From Nitrosopumilaceae archaeon (lineage in GTDB: Archaea > Thermoproteota > Nitrososphaeria > Nitrososphaerales > Nitrosopumilaceae): a stretch of DNA of 64,000 bases. Below the pieces are notes generated by a model, which was not told the DNA's origin, did no database searches, and saw only the letters and a program-made list of their open reading frames with translations. The first letter of the stretch is position 1; each line of letters opens with the position of its first letter. Location: the NCBI GenBank assembly GCA_965207375.1, contig OZ242274.1, forward strand, positions 864,001-928,000, in the 5' to 3' direction. Positions 9,490-37,171 of this stretch are shown one piece after another. A program made the translations under genes and the position numbers.

Positions 9490-9889
9490 ACCATTGTTTG
9501 ATGCAATAAATCAGGCCAAAAACGTCCTTCAGACATCTGTAATCTGAAAAACATATCAGGATTTCAAGGGTTGTCTTTTCAGGGTAACCTAAGCTCAGAA
9601 ACTGCACCAATATGCAAAAACATGCCACAACATGTTTGATTTTATGAATTTGCCCATATTCTGTCATGATTTTGCGTTTTGCCTGTGGCTGAAATCTAAT
9701 AGTATAGGAGACAACCAGAAAGCGTTCCATTCTTTTTTGCGATTACTATGGGCTGGATTCAACAAGGAATCTTACGGCTGATCCCGGAGAAATTTACATA
9801 GATGCTTTTGTTATATTTTGTGCTTTTGCTATATTTGAATTGAAATGATATATTTTATATCATGGTATCTGATATATGAAACTAACAGC

Positions 9890-11614
9890 ATGAATAACGC
9901 AAAATATTTCATACCACTCTTTGTATTGATTCTACTAATCCCATCAAGTTTAGTATATGCTGAATCAACAGGAGTGGATGATAAAACAAATAATGAAAAT
10001 CCACACACACTGGGGGACACAACAGGTTCAGTAGGTAATACATTACTTGATATAACAACTTTGGAATCATACAAGATACATCCAGAAATTACTGAAGAAA
10101 TGCTCGAAGTTCTCCCAGGAGAAAAAGCGCTAACTTTAGATTTTGGTGTAGCATATGACGAACTCAATCTGATAGGTTTTGGAATTGAAGAACACATAAG
10201 AGAAGAGTATGTTGAATATCTTGAAGATTTACCAATCACAATATTTGGCAAACATAATAATGCGATACGTGTAGGCATTGATCCTGAGAAACATGATAAT
10301 TTAGATGAGATTAGAGACAAATTTGATATCATGTATCCTAATGTTGAGATAATTGTAGTTCCTGCATTTGTTGAATATGTGGATAACTCTACAAATTATA
10401 ACGACAAGTTTACAAAAACATCTAAAGTAAACAAGGCAATACCTAATGGTAGGGGATCAATTACAGATACCATCAATATTGCACAACCCGCTACATTAAA
10501 CTCCATGAGTGTAAGCATTACAGTTGATCATGAAGACCATGATGAAATGTATATGAAATTAACATCGCCACAAGGAAAAGTAATAACCGTTTTTAGTAGA
10601 GAACGAGGACATGATGATGGGCTACAGACTTTTACATATTCATCTTCTACAAATTCTGGTTTAGCTAGATTAGCTGGCACCGACATATTTGGAACGTGGA
10701 CTTTGAATATTAGAGACGCTTATACTGGAAATGATATAGGTACCTTGAAAACTTGGACATTAAATTTTGATGCAACACCGGTCAAAACTACAGATGGTAC
10801 AAATACAAATGGTACTGAAAATAACGAGGAAAACCTGATTGAACAATTGCTCAACATAATTTTTGGCGATACCAAATGCAATACATTATCTGATGATTGC
10901 GTACCAAAAGTTGCAGGTAGTTACATTTCATATATTGGCCGTCAAGGTGCTGAAAGTCACAGTTCAATTGGACTTGGAGGTGTAAACACAACTGATGGAA
11001 ATTATGGCTTCCTGATTGCAGGGCATGCACCTGGACATGGGGATCTTGGCAAGATTATCGCCCATGAATTAGTTGATACCAATAGCATTGTGAGTTATAC
11101 AGATGCATTAGGAATAGTATCTATCAATAACAATGCAACTAGATCAGGGTACCTTGCAGCAGACGTTGCATTTGTTGAATATCCACAACAATGTATTACA
11201 ACAGAAGATACGTTATGTTATGGACCTGATAATTATACACCTACTGTAAAACCACTTGAGATTTTCAAATCAAATGGTAAAACATACGATGTTACAGGAA
11301 CTGACAATATGTCTCGTGGTGAATCTGTTGCTACTATAGGGTTTGCTTCAAACAAATTGCTTAAAGGAACTGTATATGATTCATTTGAGCGTATTCCATT
11401 ACCTGATGGATATTACTCATACATGGCATTAACTACTACTCGTACACAAAGTGGTGATAGTGGCGGTCCTGTGTTTACTATACCCAACAGTGATGATGAA
11501 GTAGAGTTTATGGGTATCAATTCAGTTTCTATAACAATTGGTGGTGAAACATATTCGGGGGTTGTTCCTTGGTATAGAATACAAGCAGATCTAGGTTTAC
11601 AACCTATTTCCTAA
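9890..11614 (+). CDS. Secreted S1 (chymotrypsin-like) serine protease with proprotein-convertase P domain
   Basis: Signal peptide MNNAKYFIPLFVLILLIPSSLVYA; P domain (LTSPQG, GTWTLNIRD...GTLKTWTLNF); triad LIAGH / ADVAFV / GDSGGP. Confidence 0.75.
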   Translation: MNNAKYFIPLFVLILLIPSSLVYAESTGVDDKTNNENPHTLGDTTGSVGNTLLDITTLESYKIHPEITEEMLEVLPGEKALTLDFGVAYDELNLIGFGIEEHIREEYVEYLEDLPITIFGKHNNAIRVGIDPEKHDNLDEIRDKFDIMYPNVEIIVVPAFVEYVDNSTNYNDKFTKTSKVNKAIPNGRGSITDTINIAQPATLNSMSVSITVDHEDHDEMYMKLTSPQGKVITVFSRERGHDDGLQTFTYSSSTNSGLARLAGTDIFGTWTLNIRDAYTGNDIGTLKTWTLNFDATPVKTTDGTNTNGTENNEENLIEQLLNIIFGDTKCNTLSDDCVPKVAGSYISYIGRQGAESHSSIGLGGVNTTDGNYGFLIAGHAPGHGDLGKIIAHELVDTNSIVSYTDALGIVSINNNATRSGYLAADVAFVEYPQQCITTEDTLCYGPDNYTPTVKPLEIFKSNGKTYDVTGTDNMSRGESVATIGFASNKLLKGTVYDSFERIPLPDGYYSYMALTTTRTQSGDSGGPVFTIPNSDDEVEFMGINSVSITIGGETYSGVVPWYRIQADLGLQPIS

Positions 11615-11831
11615 TTTTTTATTATTATAATAAAATAAGTATGTGTTCCCGTACTAGGGTGAATTTGTGCCTAAATCATTCCATTATGTCTGAAACATCA
11701 GGCATCTATGTTAACCACCCCGGCGCGTACCTTGATGTATCCCTATTGCGTTTCCGTTCCGTGCCTAATTATTTAGTATATCATTTATAGCTAACGCTAG
11801 CAAGCTTAATACCGGATTTGACATGTACAAA

Positions 11832-12923
11832 TCATTTCTGACGTGCCTTTTCCAATTTAGCAAGCTTGCGCTGATACAATCTTGTATTGTGTGACGAATA
11901 TGGTGTCTTTGTGTTCAGAATATGCCATGATATTGTTATCATCTTGTTTGCAACTGCAACAACTGCAAGTGCATGCTTGTCTGCATGTCGCCTTTTTGCA
12001 GATTCGTATATTGATTTCATCCTAGGGTCATGCATTACTGCTACATTTGCTGCCTCGCACATGGCCCAATTCACTATACTGTTGGTGTCTAGTTTCTTCA
12101 TCCTTCCAAGATATTTTTGATCTCCTGACTGGTGTATGGTAGGACACAGACCTGCCCATGCAACAAGTTTCTTTGGATTATCAAATCTTGAAATGTCTGC
12201 AATTTCGACTGCCAGTAGTAATGAAGTATATGTTCCCATCCCTGTCATGCTTGTCAATAGTTTGGCATACTCGTTGTTTGCTGCCTCTTGTTCTATGTAA
12301 TCATTCATTTTGGTCAATTCTTCGGTCAGATGTCTGATCTGTCGGACATATTGCTACAGAATTATTTCATCATGTATTTCATCAAGAGATACAGACTCTA
12401 GATACTGCATTGTCTTTACTGCATATACTTGTACTGTATCAATTGAGACATCATGTCTGTCTAAAAGACTGCGTACTCTGTTTATCACTCGTGTCCTATC
12501 ATGTACTATCTTGATATGCTGTCGTATCATTGCACGTATTCCTCGTATGTCTGGTTTTGGTACATAACACTCTGGAATCATATCCATTCGTAATACCTGT
12601 GCTATCTTTTGTGCATCCACCTTGTCTGTCTTTTTGCCAGTCTTGGCAATTATGGCCATCTTGTACGTATTTGCAAGCTTGATTGGTATACCTGCTGCCT
12701 CAAATTTAGCATAGGTGATATTCCACATGTTGCCTGTAGTTTCACATGCAGCACTGCATGTTTTTTTGTTTCCTGTGTATTTTCGTGCCATGGTTCCTGC
12801 AAACTTTTTAGCATCTGCTACCGTGTTCATATACTGACAGGTCTCAAGTACTCGTCCTGTACCGTTTATGACGCATACGTCACACTTTTTCTTTCCAATG
12901 TCTATTCCAATGTATGTTTTCAT
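11832..12923 (-). pseudogene. IS110 DEDD recombinase, 363 codons with one in-frame TAG at 12354-12356
   Basis: YIGIDIGK, ACETTG, KTDKVDA, HQSG motifs; the two listed ORFs are in the same frame; SD GGAGGTGA upstream. Confidence 0.9.
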
Positions 12924-12959
12924 CCTTTCTTTTCACCTCCTTACGGATGTTTTGACGGA

Positions 12960-13100
12960 TCGGAAGCTGCACACATCTATCAGGGCGCGTAGCCCAATTA
13001 CACAGCAGCTCGGATTGCCCCATTCACGACCAAGGGCGCGTAGCCCATACCTAATCAGGGGTCGATTCATCACTAGTACAGCGCAGGGGTGGTTATCATG
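12960..13100 (-). ncRNA. IS110 bridge RNA (target-binding and donor-binding internal loops)
   Basis: Two stem / internal-loop / hairpin units capped by the identical 15-mer AGGGCGCGTAGCCCA (+ strand 12982-12996, 13033-13047). Confidence 0.8.
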
Positions 13101-13164
13101 TGTTCACGACGTGAACTCATACCTCAAATGTGGTAAGATGGTCTTCACGGTGTAAAGACTGAAT

Positions 13165-13216
13165 AAATATCACACCTAAATTGGGTGCAAAACTCATGAT
13201 TTTGGTATTTTTACGC
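13165..13216 (-). repeat. Dispersed ~55-60 bp repeat, copy 1
   Basis: Reverse complement GCGTAAAAATACCAAAATCATGAGTTTTGCACCCAATTTAGGTGTG resembles 23095-23158 and 32894-32958. Confidence 0.55.
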
Positions 13217-14340
13217 TTAACTTGAATTGATACATTCCGTCAAGGTAGGCAGAAAACAAATTTGACTTTAACAGAGATGTACTAGTCATGCCTTTTGCTT
13301 TTGTAGGTGGTGCAACAACAATGGAATAAATGATGCAATGAAATTACATGTACGCAAAATCTTCTCATCAAAACGTGATTCCAGAAAACATTGCCAATCG
13401 TAACATTCCCACTTTCTAAAGTTCCTTATATAGTCAGGCAGTAAAGCATAAGGATCACCACTATCAGCATAAAATATGCTGCCAGGATTTGATCTTGAGG
13501 GAATAGATTGGAAGAATCCCGATGTCAACAGGCTTTTCGAGGTTCTTACTGAAAAATTTGATCAAATGGATAAACAAATTAAAGATCTACAAAAAGACAA
13601 TCATCTAAAAGATGTAAAAAGTGAACAAGTGATTGCAGAAAATAAACAGCTAAAAGAAGAAATGGTTCAACTAAAAAAACTCATAGCAAAACTGCAAAAG
13701 AAAAAAACAAGATCCAGTCATGTCAGTAGCTATAACACCAGAGAGTACAAGGGATACCCAAAGATCAAAAAACAAAAGACACAGCCAAAATATACACAGC
13801 AAGAATCTGAGACTAACAATCTAACCATAGATCACAAGTTTTGTCCACAATGTGGTAATGCTCTTGCAGATTCATCAAGCAAATACACCAGAAACGGTGA
13901 ATCAATAATAGACGGCAAATGGTCTAACGTCAATATGACCATTGTAGGCAGATACTGCAAAAAATGTGCACAAATGCAATATGCAAAACCTGTTGACTTT
14001 TTGTCCAATGAAAAATTTAGCATCACTATAATGGCAAGAATTTCTACAATGAGACACCTGACTATATCGTATGGCAAAATACAGAAACTCTTGCAGATGT
14101 TTTACGGCAAAAATATGGCAATCTCTACACTAGAAAGACTTGATGCGCAAGCCTCAAAATGCCTAGAACCGCTCTACTATTCGCTTCTTGATGAGATTAC
14201 CAAGGCAAAAATCGTAGGAGGTGATGAAACAGGATGGTATCTAAACGGCAAACTATGCTGGGCATGGGTGTTTCATTCGATATACACGGTAGTATATCAC
14301 ATCTCACAATCTAGAAGCAAAATGGTATCTGAGACGTTTC

Positions 14341-15868
14341 GTAAGTGTTAACGTGGTTTTTACGTCTCTAGAGGTATTTTGTCATCTCTTCTAGATAATT
14401 TAATCCAGCATTTCTCCAAGTCATCACACATGAAAACAAATTGCCCAATGTCTCCATGCTTTTTTCGGATCTAATTCCACCACGTATTTTTCTGTGTACA
14501 ACAATCTCACGCAGTGCACGTTCTGCTGTATTGTTGGTAGGAGGTATGGTAGGATCCAGCACAAACCTGAACAGGTTTGGTAGGGCTCGTCCCAGCTTTC
14601 CCATGAATCTTTTGAGATTGTGCAATGGAGTGTATGTATCAATAATCCTCTTTACACGACGATACAGATTGCGCCGTATTTTTTTGCGCCGTTTATACGA
14701 GATACGTGCAGTTATGGTATCTTTTGCATCTTCATATATTTTCTTGAGAGCCTCTTGTGCACCCAGACATTTTTTACATCCACATTTTTGTGTCTCGTGG
14801 TGCATCTCACGCATGATGTGAGCCCAACATCTCTGGATATCATATACCATGTACGGTTTGTGTCCGTCACAGATGATTGTTCCCTTCCAGTCATCTCCTA
14901 GTATCTCTTCGAGTACGTCTCTTCCCCTGCTAGGCCGTACCACATACAGTGCAGTATTTGTACCTGGAATGTAAAATACCCACGCCCATACGTTTTTGCC
15001 GTTTAGATGTATTGATGTCTCATCTATGTGTAACAGGACTGCAGCCCTGATTGCCTTTAGGAGTTGTTTTGTGGGTGCCGTTAGGCACGCACCAACCATG
15101 GTTATTATGTTGTGTGCAGAAGCTGGAGATATTTTGATTCCCCTCAAGGTCAGTGCTTCTGCGTTTCTGCGATGAGGTAGTCTGTCGATATAATTTGCTA
15201 CTGCCTGTGTTACTATATTGTTGCCATAATTGCCTTTTGTAGGAAAATCAGTCTCTGGGATTATGTCTTTTTTGCCACAGTTTTTGCATGAGCACAAATC
15301 TACATGATGACGTGTTGTTTCAGGTTGTACCTGTGGCGGTACTTCTGTAATGTCACGTATCTGTGTTTTGATAATTTTAAGATCTTTTGAGCCACACTCT
15401 GGACATTTTGCTGGCGTGTGTTGTTTGAATTTTGTAGGTTTTGGCTTGCTTGTTGCACCTTTGTGTCCCTTTGGTGCTCCTCGCTCACCTGTTGTTTTCT
15501 TGTTTTTATCCTTGTTTTTATTATCAGTTTTCTTCTTTTCTGGCATCTTGCGTGATGGTGGAGTGTGTGCGTTATCATAAAATTGGAGTTTTTTATTAAG
15601 ATCAGTGGCAATAGTTTTCAAATTGTGTATGTTGTTTTCTAACTCCTTTACTAGATCTTTTAGTTTTTTTTCGTTGTCATCTTTTTTTTGGATCATGGCA
15701 TCTTTCAACTCCATCATCTGTTCGAGTTTTAGATTCTTAGTTCGTTCGGCTTTGTAGAGTTTTTTGAAATCTGTCAATGTATGGTTTGGCTATTTGACCT
15801 CATTTAGATCATGTTGCCAAAAATTTGATCGTAAATGGTCAAAATCTAGGCACGACGTAAACACTTAC
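14341..15868 (-). mobile_element. IS66-family element (single ORF, ISBst12-like)
   Basis: TIRs GTAAGTGTT(A/T)ACGT; 8-bp TSD GACGTTTC at 14333-14340 and 15869-15876. Confidence 0.93.
14368..15777 (-). CDS. IS66-family transposase
   Basis: Coiled coil, CPEC zinc finger, HIDET, ICDG, QRCWAH, TNNTAERALR. Confidence 0.92.
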   Translation of the reverse strand: MTDFKKLYKAERTKNLKLEQMMELKDAMIQKKDDNEKKLKDLVKELENNIHNLKTIATDLNKKLQFYDNAHTPPSRKMPEKKKTDNKNKDKNKKTTGERGAPKGHKGATSKPKPTKFKQHTPAKCPECGSKDLKIIKTQIRDITEVPPQVQPETTRHHVDLCSCKNCGKKDIIPETDFPTKGNYGNNIVTQAVANYIDRLPHRRNAEALTLRGIKISPASAHNIITMVGACLTAPTKQLLKAIRAAVLLHIDETSIHLNGKNVWAWVFYIPGTNTALYVVRPSRGRDVLEEILGDDWKGTIICDGHKPYMVYDIQRCWAHIMREMHHETQKCGCKKCLGAQEALKKIYEDAKDTITARISYKRRKKIRRNLYRRVKRIIDTYTPLHNLKRFMGKLGRALPNLFRFVLDPTIPPTNNTAERALREIVVHRKIRGGIRSEKSMETLGNLFSCVMTWRNAGLNYLEEMTKYL

Positions 15869-36520: not shown

Positions 36521-37171
36521 ATGGTCTGGCTTAGACGATGTACTCACTATTTATTCATAGTAGTGGTTGCAGTTAATTCGACCCTGTTAACAATTAACGC
36601 AGGAGACTACATCTTCTACACAGACTGGGCCTGGACATCGTTTGTAGTATTTTCAATATCGCAAACGCTTATGCTTGCAGTTGGTGCAGCATATTATCTA
36701 ACCTTCACAGGTGTTCCAGGAACAGCAACGTACTACGCATTAATTATGACTGTATACACGTGGATTGCAAAAGGTGCATGGTTTGCACTAGGATATCCAT
36801 ATGACTTCATTGTTACTCCAGTATGGCTACCATCAGCAATGTTGATGGATTTGGTATATTGGGCTACAAAGAAGAACAAGCACAGCTTGATACTGTTTGG
36901 CGGAGTACTAGTAGGAATGTCTTTACCATTGTTCAACATGGTAAACCTGATTACGGTCGCAGACCCACTTGAAACGGCCTTCAAGTATCCAAGACCAACA
37001 TTACCACCATACATGACACCAATTGAACCGCAAGTCGGCAAGTTCTATAACAGTCCGGTTGCATTGGGTGCAGGAGCTGGTGCTGTTTTGGCGTGTACTT
37101 TCATGGCGTTGGGTTGTAAACTCAATACTTGGACTTACAGATGGATGGCTGCATGGTCAAAGTGGGACTAA
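36521..37171 (+). CDS. amoA: Ammonia monooxygenase subunit A
   Basis: MVWLRRCTHYLF, GDYIFYTDW, WMAAWSKWD. Confidence 0.99.
   Translation: MVWLRRCTHYLFIVVVAVNSTLLTINAGDYIFYTDWAWTSFVVFSISQTLMLAVGAAYYLTFTGVPGTATYYALIMTVYTWIAKGAWFALGYPYDFIVTPVWLPSAMLMDLVYWATKKNKHSLILFGGVLVGMSLPLFNMVNLITVADPLETAFKYPRPTLPPYMTPIEPQVGKFYNSPVALGAGAGAVLACTFMALGCKLNTWTYRWMAAWSKWD

Follow-up and report, generated by a model that had tools for sequence, protein, structure and literature searches.

An archaeal IS110/IS1111-type insertion sequence with a putative two-loop guide RNA upstream of its transposase gene

Does an insertion sequence in the genome of an ammonia-oxidising archaeon carry the RNA that would choose its own insertion site? 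The question is raised by a stretch of 64,000 nt, referred to here as the window (positions 864,001 to 928,000 of contig OZ242274.1, assembly GCA_965207375.1), from a Nitrosopumilaceae archaeon with a genome of 4.3 Mb in 4 contigs. The window contains an insertion sequence with an IS110-type transposase gene, preceded by a non-coding region in which two similar hairpin modules can be folded. A first reading made from the letters of the window alone (the sequence-only reading) had described it as an archaeal IS110 element with a two-loop bridge RNA, the loops of which match the insertion site and the element's own ends. This description is borne out by the checks reported here, in which four copies with the same ends were found in the genome, together with natural empty sites and with guides covarying with the flanks across relatives. 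With a probability of roughly 0.9, it represents an RNA-guided member of the IS110/IS1111 superfamily of insertion sequences, the bridge (seek) RNA of which is encoded in the 5' non-coding region. Bridge/seek-RNA recombinases are under development as programmable DNA-insertion tools, and to our knowledge all characterised ones are bacterial. Ammonia-oxidising archaea are ecologically important and genetically intractable. Such an archaeon had already been proposed as the host, which is in line with an archaeal AmoA gene (PF12942, 382 bits) in the same window (36566-37114, plus strand).

Ends, core and target sites of the element

Coordinates are positions in the window, unless a contig is named, and the element and all its features lie on the minus strand. 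The whole insertion sequence comprises 1402 bp (11705-13106), a span common to four copies, with one copy of the TG core counted at the left end according to the IS1111 convention. The genome harbors four full copies (98-100% identical) and truncated remnants, 17 matches in total; at least eight truncated or deleted remnants of the element are present. Among the full copies, designated A (the window copy) to D, 38 of 1408 aligned columns vary, and all four show the exact span from AACACATG... to ...CATAGA with TG flanking both sides. Contigs assembled from public sequencing runs break off at 11700-11704 and 13106-13107, the borders of the element. A left subterminal inverted repeat (ATGATAACCACCCC, 13086-13099) is preceded by the 7-bp extension TGAACAC and is complementary at 13 of 14 positions to the right repeat (GGGGTGGTTAACAT, 11708-11721), which is followed by the 3-bp extension AGA. 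The 14-bp repeat is located 7 bp from the left tip (TG counted) and 3 bp from the right tip. T1, G2, A8, T9 and G10 of the left end are invariant across 13 aligned relatives. The subterminal repeat was matched at 12 or more of the 14 positions in 22 of the 67 rows among those listed, many of the remaining rows being truncated remnants.

The left copy of the core (13105-13106) corresponds to a TG found before the left end in all 13 aligned relatives and present once in the empty sites. The right copy is located at 11703-11704, and right ends read CAT-NNN-TG in 27/27 among those listed, in a search that demanded the core dinucleotide carried by the guide itself (TG in these rows). An independent search using the repeat only also yielded TG in the well-matched rows, with one TA. 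Copy C is inserted in an IS66-family element, within the left terminal repeat, and three uninterrupted copies of this repeat (GTAAGTGTTTAC-GTCG-TG-CCTAGATTTT...) are found on contig 1 at 1941304, 1824048 and 879868, the third of which lies within the window (15868-15841, minus strand). The flanks of copy C, once rejoined with a single TG, are identical to these empty sites at every letter, from which it follows that TG is the core and that no other bases are duplicated. A core of AT or T, as suggested in the sequence-only reading, is ruled out by the single TG in the empty sites. The target rejoined there was 2 nt too long as well, since the empty sites read GTCG-TG-CCTAGA.

Insertion is specific and takes place at the TG inside GTCG-TG-CCTRRT-like sites. 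In the window copy, the two target halves are GTCG (13107-13110) and CCTGAT (11697-11702). Both the window copy and copy D are inserted in miniature elements, the terminus of which is of the GTACTTGTTCAC type, and uninterrupted relatives of both sites were found. The natural targets in this genome are terminal repeats of IS66-family elements and of related miniature elements. An unoccupied, perfect target (GTCG-TG-CCTAGA, 15845-15856, minus strand) is situated 12 nt inside the left terminal repeat (start 15868) of an IS66-family element, and the ORF beside it (14368-15777, minus strand) encodes a DDE_Tnp_IS66 domain (9.7e-39). Other uninterrupted repeats, in which one or two of the four left positions are changed (GCCA, GCCG, GTCA and GTTG), are likewise unoccupied.

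Copy B (contig 1: 1245892-1247293, L059/L002) is peculiar with respect to its surroundings. Its two flanks map approximately 45 nt apart in uninterrupted copies of its miniature element (1305376-1305436), and a TG site is found at each of the matching positions. This points to a deletion beside the element or to a second half-site recombination there. The two flanks of the window copy were not joined on any contig of the four public runs, the contigs of which are short; compared with positions 11300-13500, they break at the repeat ends and none of them spans the element.

The upstream RNA and its guides

The non-coding region extends over 181 nt from the left tip to the start codon and contains two modules, each composed of stem, internal loop and hairpin, within an outer stem. 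The structured bridge/seek RNA (12954-13071), as delimited by RNAalifold, a covariance model (R1) and pair counts, is enclosed by the outer stem formed by 13071-13064 and 12961-12954. Module 1, the putative target loop, consists of the stem CCCC (13061-13058) with GGGG (13021-13018), the 5' loop side UGAUUAGGUAU (13057-13047), the cap GGGC-UACGC-GCCC (13046-13034) and the 3' loop side UUGGUCGUGAAU (13033-13022). Module 2, the putative donor loop, is built from the stem GCUGC (13009-13005) with GCAGC (12970-12966), the 5' side UGUGUAAUU (13004-12996), a cap identical to that of module 1 (12995-12983) and the 3' side UGAUAGAUGUGU (12982-12971). Both the minimum free energy fold and the centroid fold of the single sequence give the two modules, which had been placed at the same positions before, and comparative covariation agrees. 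The identity of the two caps, also pointed out in the sequence-only reading, holds for the window element, but is limited to it and its closest relatives.

The folding energy of the single sequence is ordinary, and support for the structure comes from comparative data. Upstream regions of 13 relatives, with transposases of 36-67% protein identity, were aligned; RNAalifold predicted an identical set of five helices, in which 17 of the 25 pairs show compensatory changes, and the covariance model was built from this alignment. The model matched 8 places in the own genome and was found in 22 of 151 genomes sampled from the order and in 7 of 151 sampled from the phylum (three of the latter outside the own family), with at least 80 RNA places across 99 loci. 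In 74 distinct model matches, 90.4% of the cells pair compared to 68.2% in shuffles, double-sided changes are seen in 23 of 25 pairs, none of 500 shuffles equals the covariation score and pairing goes down to 27-45% in controls with slid partners; these pairing figures are generous, because the sequences share ancestry and were aligned by fitting them to the model, while RNAalifold on the 13 relatives is independent and agrees. By these data, the RNA structure is under selection. None of the Rfam covariance models reached the threshold on the window copy (snoR19, L20 leader and U8 were at chance level, with E-values of 1.2-4.3), and the downstream non-coding region of 127 nt gave no match to the covariance model R1.

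Two remnants (L061, contig 1: 555714-555822, and L062, contig 1: 1740058-1740166) and one public contig are devoid of 51 nt between the identical 13-nt caps (window 12981-13033). The loss joins the 5' guide of the target loop to the 3' guide of the donor loop, in a hybrid that would fit the right junction of a copy after integration. Simple slippage between direct repeats might account for the loss just as well.

For an analysis of the guides, the four loop sides were taken from the covariance-model alignment and compared with flanks and element ends. Loop sides shorter than 11 nt and flanks cut by contig ends were left out of the counts. Right ends for the right-flank test were located by a search anchored on the donor guide combined with a partial repeat match, because an ungapped repeat search fails on indels and truncations; those that matched the repeat at fewer than 9 of 12 positions, or at fewer than 12 in the presence of a guide mismatch, were left out. 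For the donor-guide test, right ends were defined by the inverted repeat alone, which avoids circularity.

The 3' side of the target loop (13022-13033) is composed in the window copy of a linker, the left-flank guide GUCG, the core UG, a 2-nt handshake AA and an invariant U. The same order is seen across the family, with a linker, 4-5 nt equal to the left flank, UG, 2 nt equal to the element start and the invariant U. GUCG-UG of the window copy is identical to its left target half plus core, and AA to its element start. The left-flank guide matches at 4/4 positions in 34 of 59 unique pairs and at 3/4 in another 13, compared to 4/4 in 0.3% of unrelated cross-pairings. The handshake nucleotides equal element positions 1-2 in 60 of 77 rows, with AA, AC and AT covarying. 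The 5' side of the target loop (13047-13057) is complementary to TG and the right flank. It ends with YR-U, where YR (CA, UA or CG) complements TG with wobble, and the preceding nucleotides complement right-flank positions 1-6. Pairing at 5 or more of these 6 positions was found in 16 of 22 unique pairs versus 3.2% of cross-pairings. In the window copy, AUUAGG-UA pairs with TG-CCTGAT via six Watson-Crick pairs and two G-U wobbles; CCTGAT is paired with AUUAGG at 6/6 positions including one wobble, and the core TG provides the second.

These results change the guide boundaries given earlier. The match of 10/10 ascribed to the 3' guide was due to the mis-joined target, and the guide actually covers 4 nt of the left flank and TG (6 nt of target), followed by 2 nt of the element start and not of the right flank. 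The final G of GUCGUGAAUG, regarded as part of the guide, is the first G of the 4-bp stem. For the 5' guide, 7 of 9 matches and two wobbles had been counted; it pairs with TG and CCTGAT by six Watson-Crick and two G-U pairs, and the ninth position, a U invariant in the family, is no guide position.

Copy D differs from copies A to C by 3 nt in the 3' target guide (GGUC to UUUU), and its left flank ends with TTTG, not GTCG. Uninterrupted sites of the copy D type (GATTTG-TG-CCTAAA) are present at two other places. The changed guide of copy D fits its own site, which implies that the copy moved once the guide had changed; copy D is a case of natural re-targeting. A second, diverged member of the family is located on contig 1 (RNA L060 at 1753567-1753749, further part at 1754044-1754820), with 41% protein identity, one internal TGA and its own RNA (75 bits), the 3' target guide of which matches its own left flank at 4/4 positions.

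The two-hairpin region might be nothing but a cis-acting leader of the transposase mRNA, involved for example in translational control, while the protein picks the target and the matches are due to one repeated target that the copies have in common. The distance from the end of the structure to the ribosome-binding motif GGAGGTGA is 14 nt, in favour of a leader. Moreover, most copies in the own genome sit in similar repeats, and identical flanks alone are therefore no proof of guiding. Across genomes, however, the flanks vary and the loops change along with them, as seen from the fractions of matching left-flank and right-flank pairs compared to cross-pairings given above. Guide and flank also changed together in copy D, and in characterised members of the family the RNA is required for transposition (PMC11187229, PMC11208160). 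An exclusive leader function is consequently regarded as very unlikely, and a guiding RNA remains the preferred reading.

The donor loop would read the ends of the element itself. On its 3' side (12971-12982), AUAGA-UG is identical in the window copy to the final 5 nt of the right end followed by the core. With right ends defined by the repeat, this guide matches at 7/7 positions in six of eight unique pairs and at 6/7 in the other two, and the right-end variants ATAGA, ATAGG, ATGAG and ATGGA covary with it. The first 5 nt of the 5' side (12996-13004), UGUGU, are complementary to ACACA, positions 2-6 of the left end. Over 42 unique pairs, this side and the left-end positions 6 to 2 covary in an anti-diagonal manner, with complementarity of 0.79, 0.93, 0.83, 0.86 and 0.60, respectively. 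Both matches of the second loop had been recognised correctly from the sequence. The 3 nt that follow the core on the 3' side were considered as a handshake guide for the right flank, but this reading was rejected, as no consistent match was obtained.

Several observations weigh against the guiding function or parts of it. At 2 or fewer of 4 positions matched, 12 of the 59 left-flank pairs do not follow the rule, nor do 3 of the 22 right-flank pairs (e.g. L065 and L117), which have no more than 3 of 6 positions paired. The sequences are related rather than independent, and the guide counts therefore overstate the number of events. In the donor loop, no pairing with the core was seen for the last 4 nt of the 5' side, which had no partner in the 42 unique pairs, and on the 3' side the 3 nt behind the core showed no clear match to the right flank. 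The fold energy of the whole stretch, taken as a single sequence, is ordinary (z = -0.59). In uninterrupted paralogs, the sequences corresponding to the two flanks of copy B do not adjoin each other. None of the sequencing runs on record that hold the stretch is listed as RNA, and no circle junction was reported in the contigs of the four public runs, which could hardly show one.

A further alternative concerns the strand. The element might be an ordinary IS621-type (IS110-type) system, the RNA of which is read from the other strand or in another register, so that the reversed polarity described below would be an artefact. Helices are possible on either strand, and the strand is not fixed by transcripts. 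The stems, however, contain G-U pairs (e.g. 11 U-G at columns 55/290 and 9 G-U at columns 54/291 of the alignment), which would become A-C mismatches on the opposite strand, as would the two U-G wobbles in the target pairing of the window copy. Because these stem pairs and guide wobbles work only there, the transposase-sense strand is taken as the RNA strand. An RNA from the opposite strand, worked out against the arrangement described for IS621 in PMC11208160, gives the IS621 order of loops and target in neither frame, and the 14-bp subterminal repeats with their 7-bp and 3-bp extensions are published hallmarks of IS1111 elements (PMC11187229). Altogether, a misread strand is most improbable, which leaves the guide RNA on the transposase-sense strand.

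Transposase, proposed mechanism and possible activity

The transposase gene (11832-12923) contains the domains DEDD_Tnp_IS110 (PF01548, 5.9e-27) and Transposase_20 (PF02371, 2.7e-21). In the window copy it is interrupted by an in-frame TAG (12354-12356), which is unique to this copy; copies B, C and D have CAG (Gln) at this place and encode the intact 363-aa form. The window copy is a one-base nonsense pseudogene. An A to G exchange at 12356 in all four public runs corresponds to the collapsed majority form (CAG) and is uninformative on the window copy. The intact form matches the NCBI model NF033542 ('IS110 family RNA-guided transposase') with 223.8 bits (cut-off 140), and the nearest solved structures in the PDB are ISCro4 (1.1e-15) and IS621 (5.1e-14). 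D8, E61, D100, D103 and S266 of the intact copy were aligned to identical residues in ISCro4 (chain 9t56_A); judged by motif and position, they are probably equivalent to the catalytic residues D11, E60, D102, D105 and S241 of IS621. Relatives of the transposase were found in 30 of 201 sampled genomes of the order, among them Nitrosopumilus and metagenome-assembled genomes of Nitrososphaerales.

A mechanism can be proposed, for which we infer the production and binding of the RNA, the circle and the chemistry by analogy with characterised family members. The element would be excised as a circle joining the right end, TG and the left end, while the RNA would be produced and bound by a tetramer of the DEDD/Ser transposase. 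The 5' side of the target loop may pair with the transposase-sense strand of TG and 6 nt of the right target, and the 3' side with the opposite strand of 4-5 nt of the left target and TG. The donor loop may read the circle junction, with its 3' side specifying the last 5 nt of the right end and TG and its 5' side the left-end positions 2-6. With the target loop holding the genomic site and the donor loop holding the junction, the circle would recombine with a genomic GTCG-TG-CCTRRT site, strands being exchanged at the shared TG. Two further nucleotides (AA, AC or AT) could then pair with the first two nucleotides of the element after strand exchange, a handshake capturing the incoming donor strand.

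Approximately 80 nt inside the right end, a TATAAAT box (11783-11789) is present that reads outward. All 20 of 20 distinct right ends have a TA-rich box at the corresponding position of the alignment. It is a candidate archaeal promoter, which would reach the RNA and the transposase gene only across the circle junction, and might be the counterpart of the split junction promoter of bacterial elements.

Whether the family is still active in this genome bears on the proposed mechanism. The window copy has an intact RNA and intact ends, and would be mobile only with transposase from the three intact copies, because its own gene carries a nonsense codon. This codon, the remnants in the genome and the three perfect target sites that are still unoccupied would also fit a fossil family, the guides of which worked once, without any copy being active now. 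On the other hand, in three copies the 363-aa ORF is intact and the five catalytic residues as well as the ends are preserved, the copies differ at few aligned positions (see above) and the changed guide of copy D fits its own site, pointing to movement after the change. Complete inactivity is therefore considered unlikely, and an element with copies that may still move is preferred. If active, it would represent a native, compact and programmable recombinase for hosts without genetic tools.

Place among known systems and in other lineages

The ends and the guide order of the element are of the IS1111 type, while the RNA lies upstream of the transposase gene. It is an archaeal member of the known bridge/seek-RNA class and not a new kind of system, although the combination of features is uncommon. 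It is placed with IS1111 by its ends and guide order. IS1111 hallmarks are subterminal inverted repeats of about 11-13 bp with 7-bp and 3-bp extensions (Siddiquee et al. 2024, PMC11187229), and the present element shares subterminal repeats, a 7-bp left and a 3-bp right extension with IS1111 seekRNA elements such as ISEc11, ISPa11 and ISKpn4/ISPst6. Like IS1111 elements, it has specific repeated targets and no duplication beyond the shared bases (PMC11187229). In the IS1111 seekRNA, a segment complementary to the top strand comes first and is followed by one complementary to the bottom strand, the two overlapping at the insertion point (PMC11187229); the same order and overlap are found here. 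The opposite target polarity noticed in the sequence-only reading is real in comparison with IS621, but had already been published as the order of IS1111-type seekRNAs. Unlike in IS1111 elements, the RNA is encoded in the 181-nt region upstream and not downstream, and the host is an archaeon; PMC11187229 places the non-coding region downstream of the gene for the transposase in nearly all IS1111 elements, with rare exceptions such as ISMtsp17.

With IS621 and ISCro4 (Durrant et al. 2024, PMC11208160; Hiraizumi et al. 2024, PMC11208158), the element shares the RNA upstream of the recombinase gene, two pseudo-symmetric internal loops in the order target and donor that read both strands around a 2-nt core, and a DEDD and Ser recombinase. 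The bridge RNA of IS621 also has a 2-nt handshake guide after the core on the 3' side of the target loop, matching the donor, as seen here (PMC11208160, PMC11208158). Unlike in IS621, all four loop sides are reversed, the 5' side pairing with the top strand on the right here and with the bottom strand on the left in IS621 (PMC11208160, PMC11208158). Further differences are the core (TG, not CT), the presence of subterminal inverted repeats and the donor loop 5' side without core pairing (PMC11208160, PMC11208158). On turning both DNAs by 180 degrees, one obtains exactly the layout of IS621, with the target-loop handshake guide included.

In a search of the literature for an archaeal bridge RNA, including ammonia oxidisers, no description was found; supplementary tables of large surveys covering archaea may list such elements. 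The phrases 'archaeal bridge' and 'archaeal IS1111' were not found among the papers listed in this search, which was limited to papers combining two or more related terms. Specialisation on the ends of other transposons has a reported precedent: Partridge and Hall are said to have described in 2003 that IS4321 and IS5075 of the IS1111 family insert at a fixed position within terminal inverted repeats of another transposon family. Those elements are reportedly bacterial and target repeats of the Tn21 family, whereas the present one is archaeal and targets repeats of IS66-family and related miniature elements.

Outside the ammonia oxidisers, the nearest plasmid-borne relatives are haloarchaeal genes annotated as 'IS110 family transposase' (31-34% identity). 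Directly upstream of the gene, weak matches to the covariance model were obtained in Haloarcula (E = 0.0013) and Halorubrum (E = 0.0098), with 6.6 kb searched. The two elements, with 32-34% protein identity, are located on the Haloarcula sp. plasmid NZ_CP142029.1 (L127; 398-579 and approx. 1794-1821) and on the Halorubrum ezzemoulense megaplasmid NZ_CP034941.1 (L129; 373-590 and approx. 1790-1817), both with an upstream two-loop RNA, the same end structure and guides that match the flanks of the respective element. Inspected by eye, both have a TG core, a 13-bp subterminal repeat and a 3-nt right extension; their 3' target guide equals 5 nt of the left flank followed by TG and AC, and their 5' guide pairs with TG and 6 nt of the right flank at 8/8 positions, with one wobble in Haloarcula. 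A relative on a Sphingobium plasmid (L128) gave only a partial, insignificant model match (E = 0.44), and no claim is made for bacteria.

Taken jointly, these features might define a distinct archaeal lineage, comprising ammonia oxidisers and haloarchaea, that combines ends and polarity of the IS1111 type with an upstream RNA of the IS110 type, has a complete archaeal TATA promoter in the right end that would switch on the RNA and the transposase gene only across the circle junction, is specialised on terminal repeats of other transposons and has been re-targeted within one genome (copy D). This combined reading is tentative, being possible but somewhat short of probable. If true, guide polarity would be tied to the ends and not to where the RNA gene is placed; the locus also offers a test of whether IS1111-type guide order and subterminal repeats depend on this placement. 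The locus is a fully readable archaeal example with defined ends, a TG core, natural empty sites and a natural re-targeting event. Its guides have defined lengths, one side comprising 4-5 + 2 + 2 nt and the other 2 + 6 nt. Genome annotation could make use of the covariance model, by which at least 80 such RNAs were marked; on the window copy, no Rfam family reached the threshold.

In the neighbourhood of the insertion sequence, a complete IS66-family element sits 2.7 kb away, and a truncated IS66-like ORF (13476-14351, plus strand; DDE_Tnp_IS66, 1.5e-08) directly adjoins it. On the other side, an ORF on the plus strand (9845-11614) encodes a secreted-looking protein of 589 aa with a proprotein convertase P-domain (6.8e-12), which ends 83 nt from the right target half.

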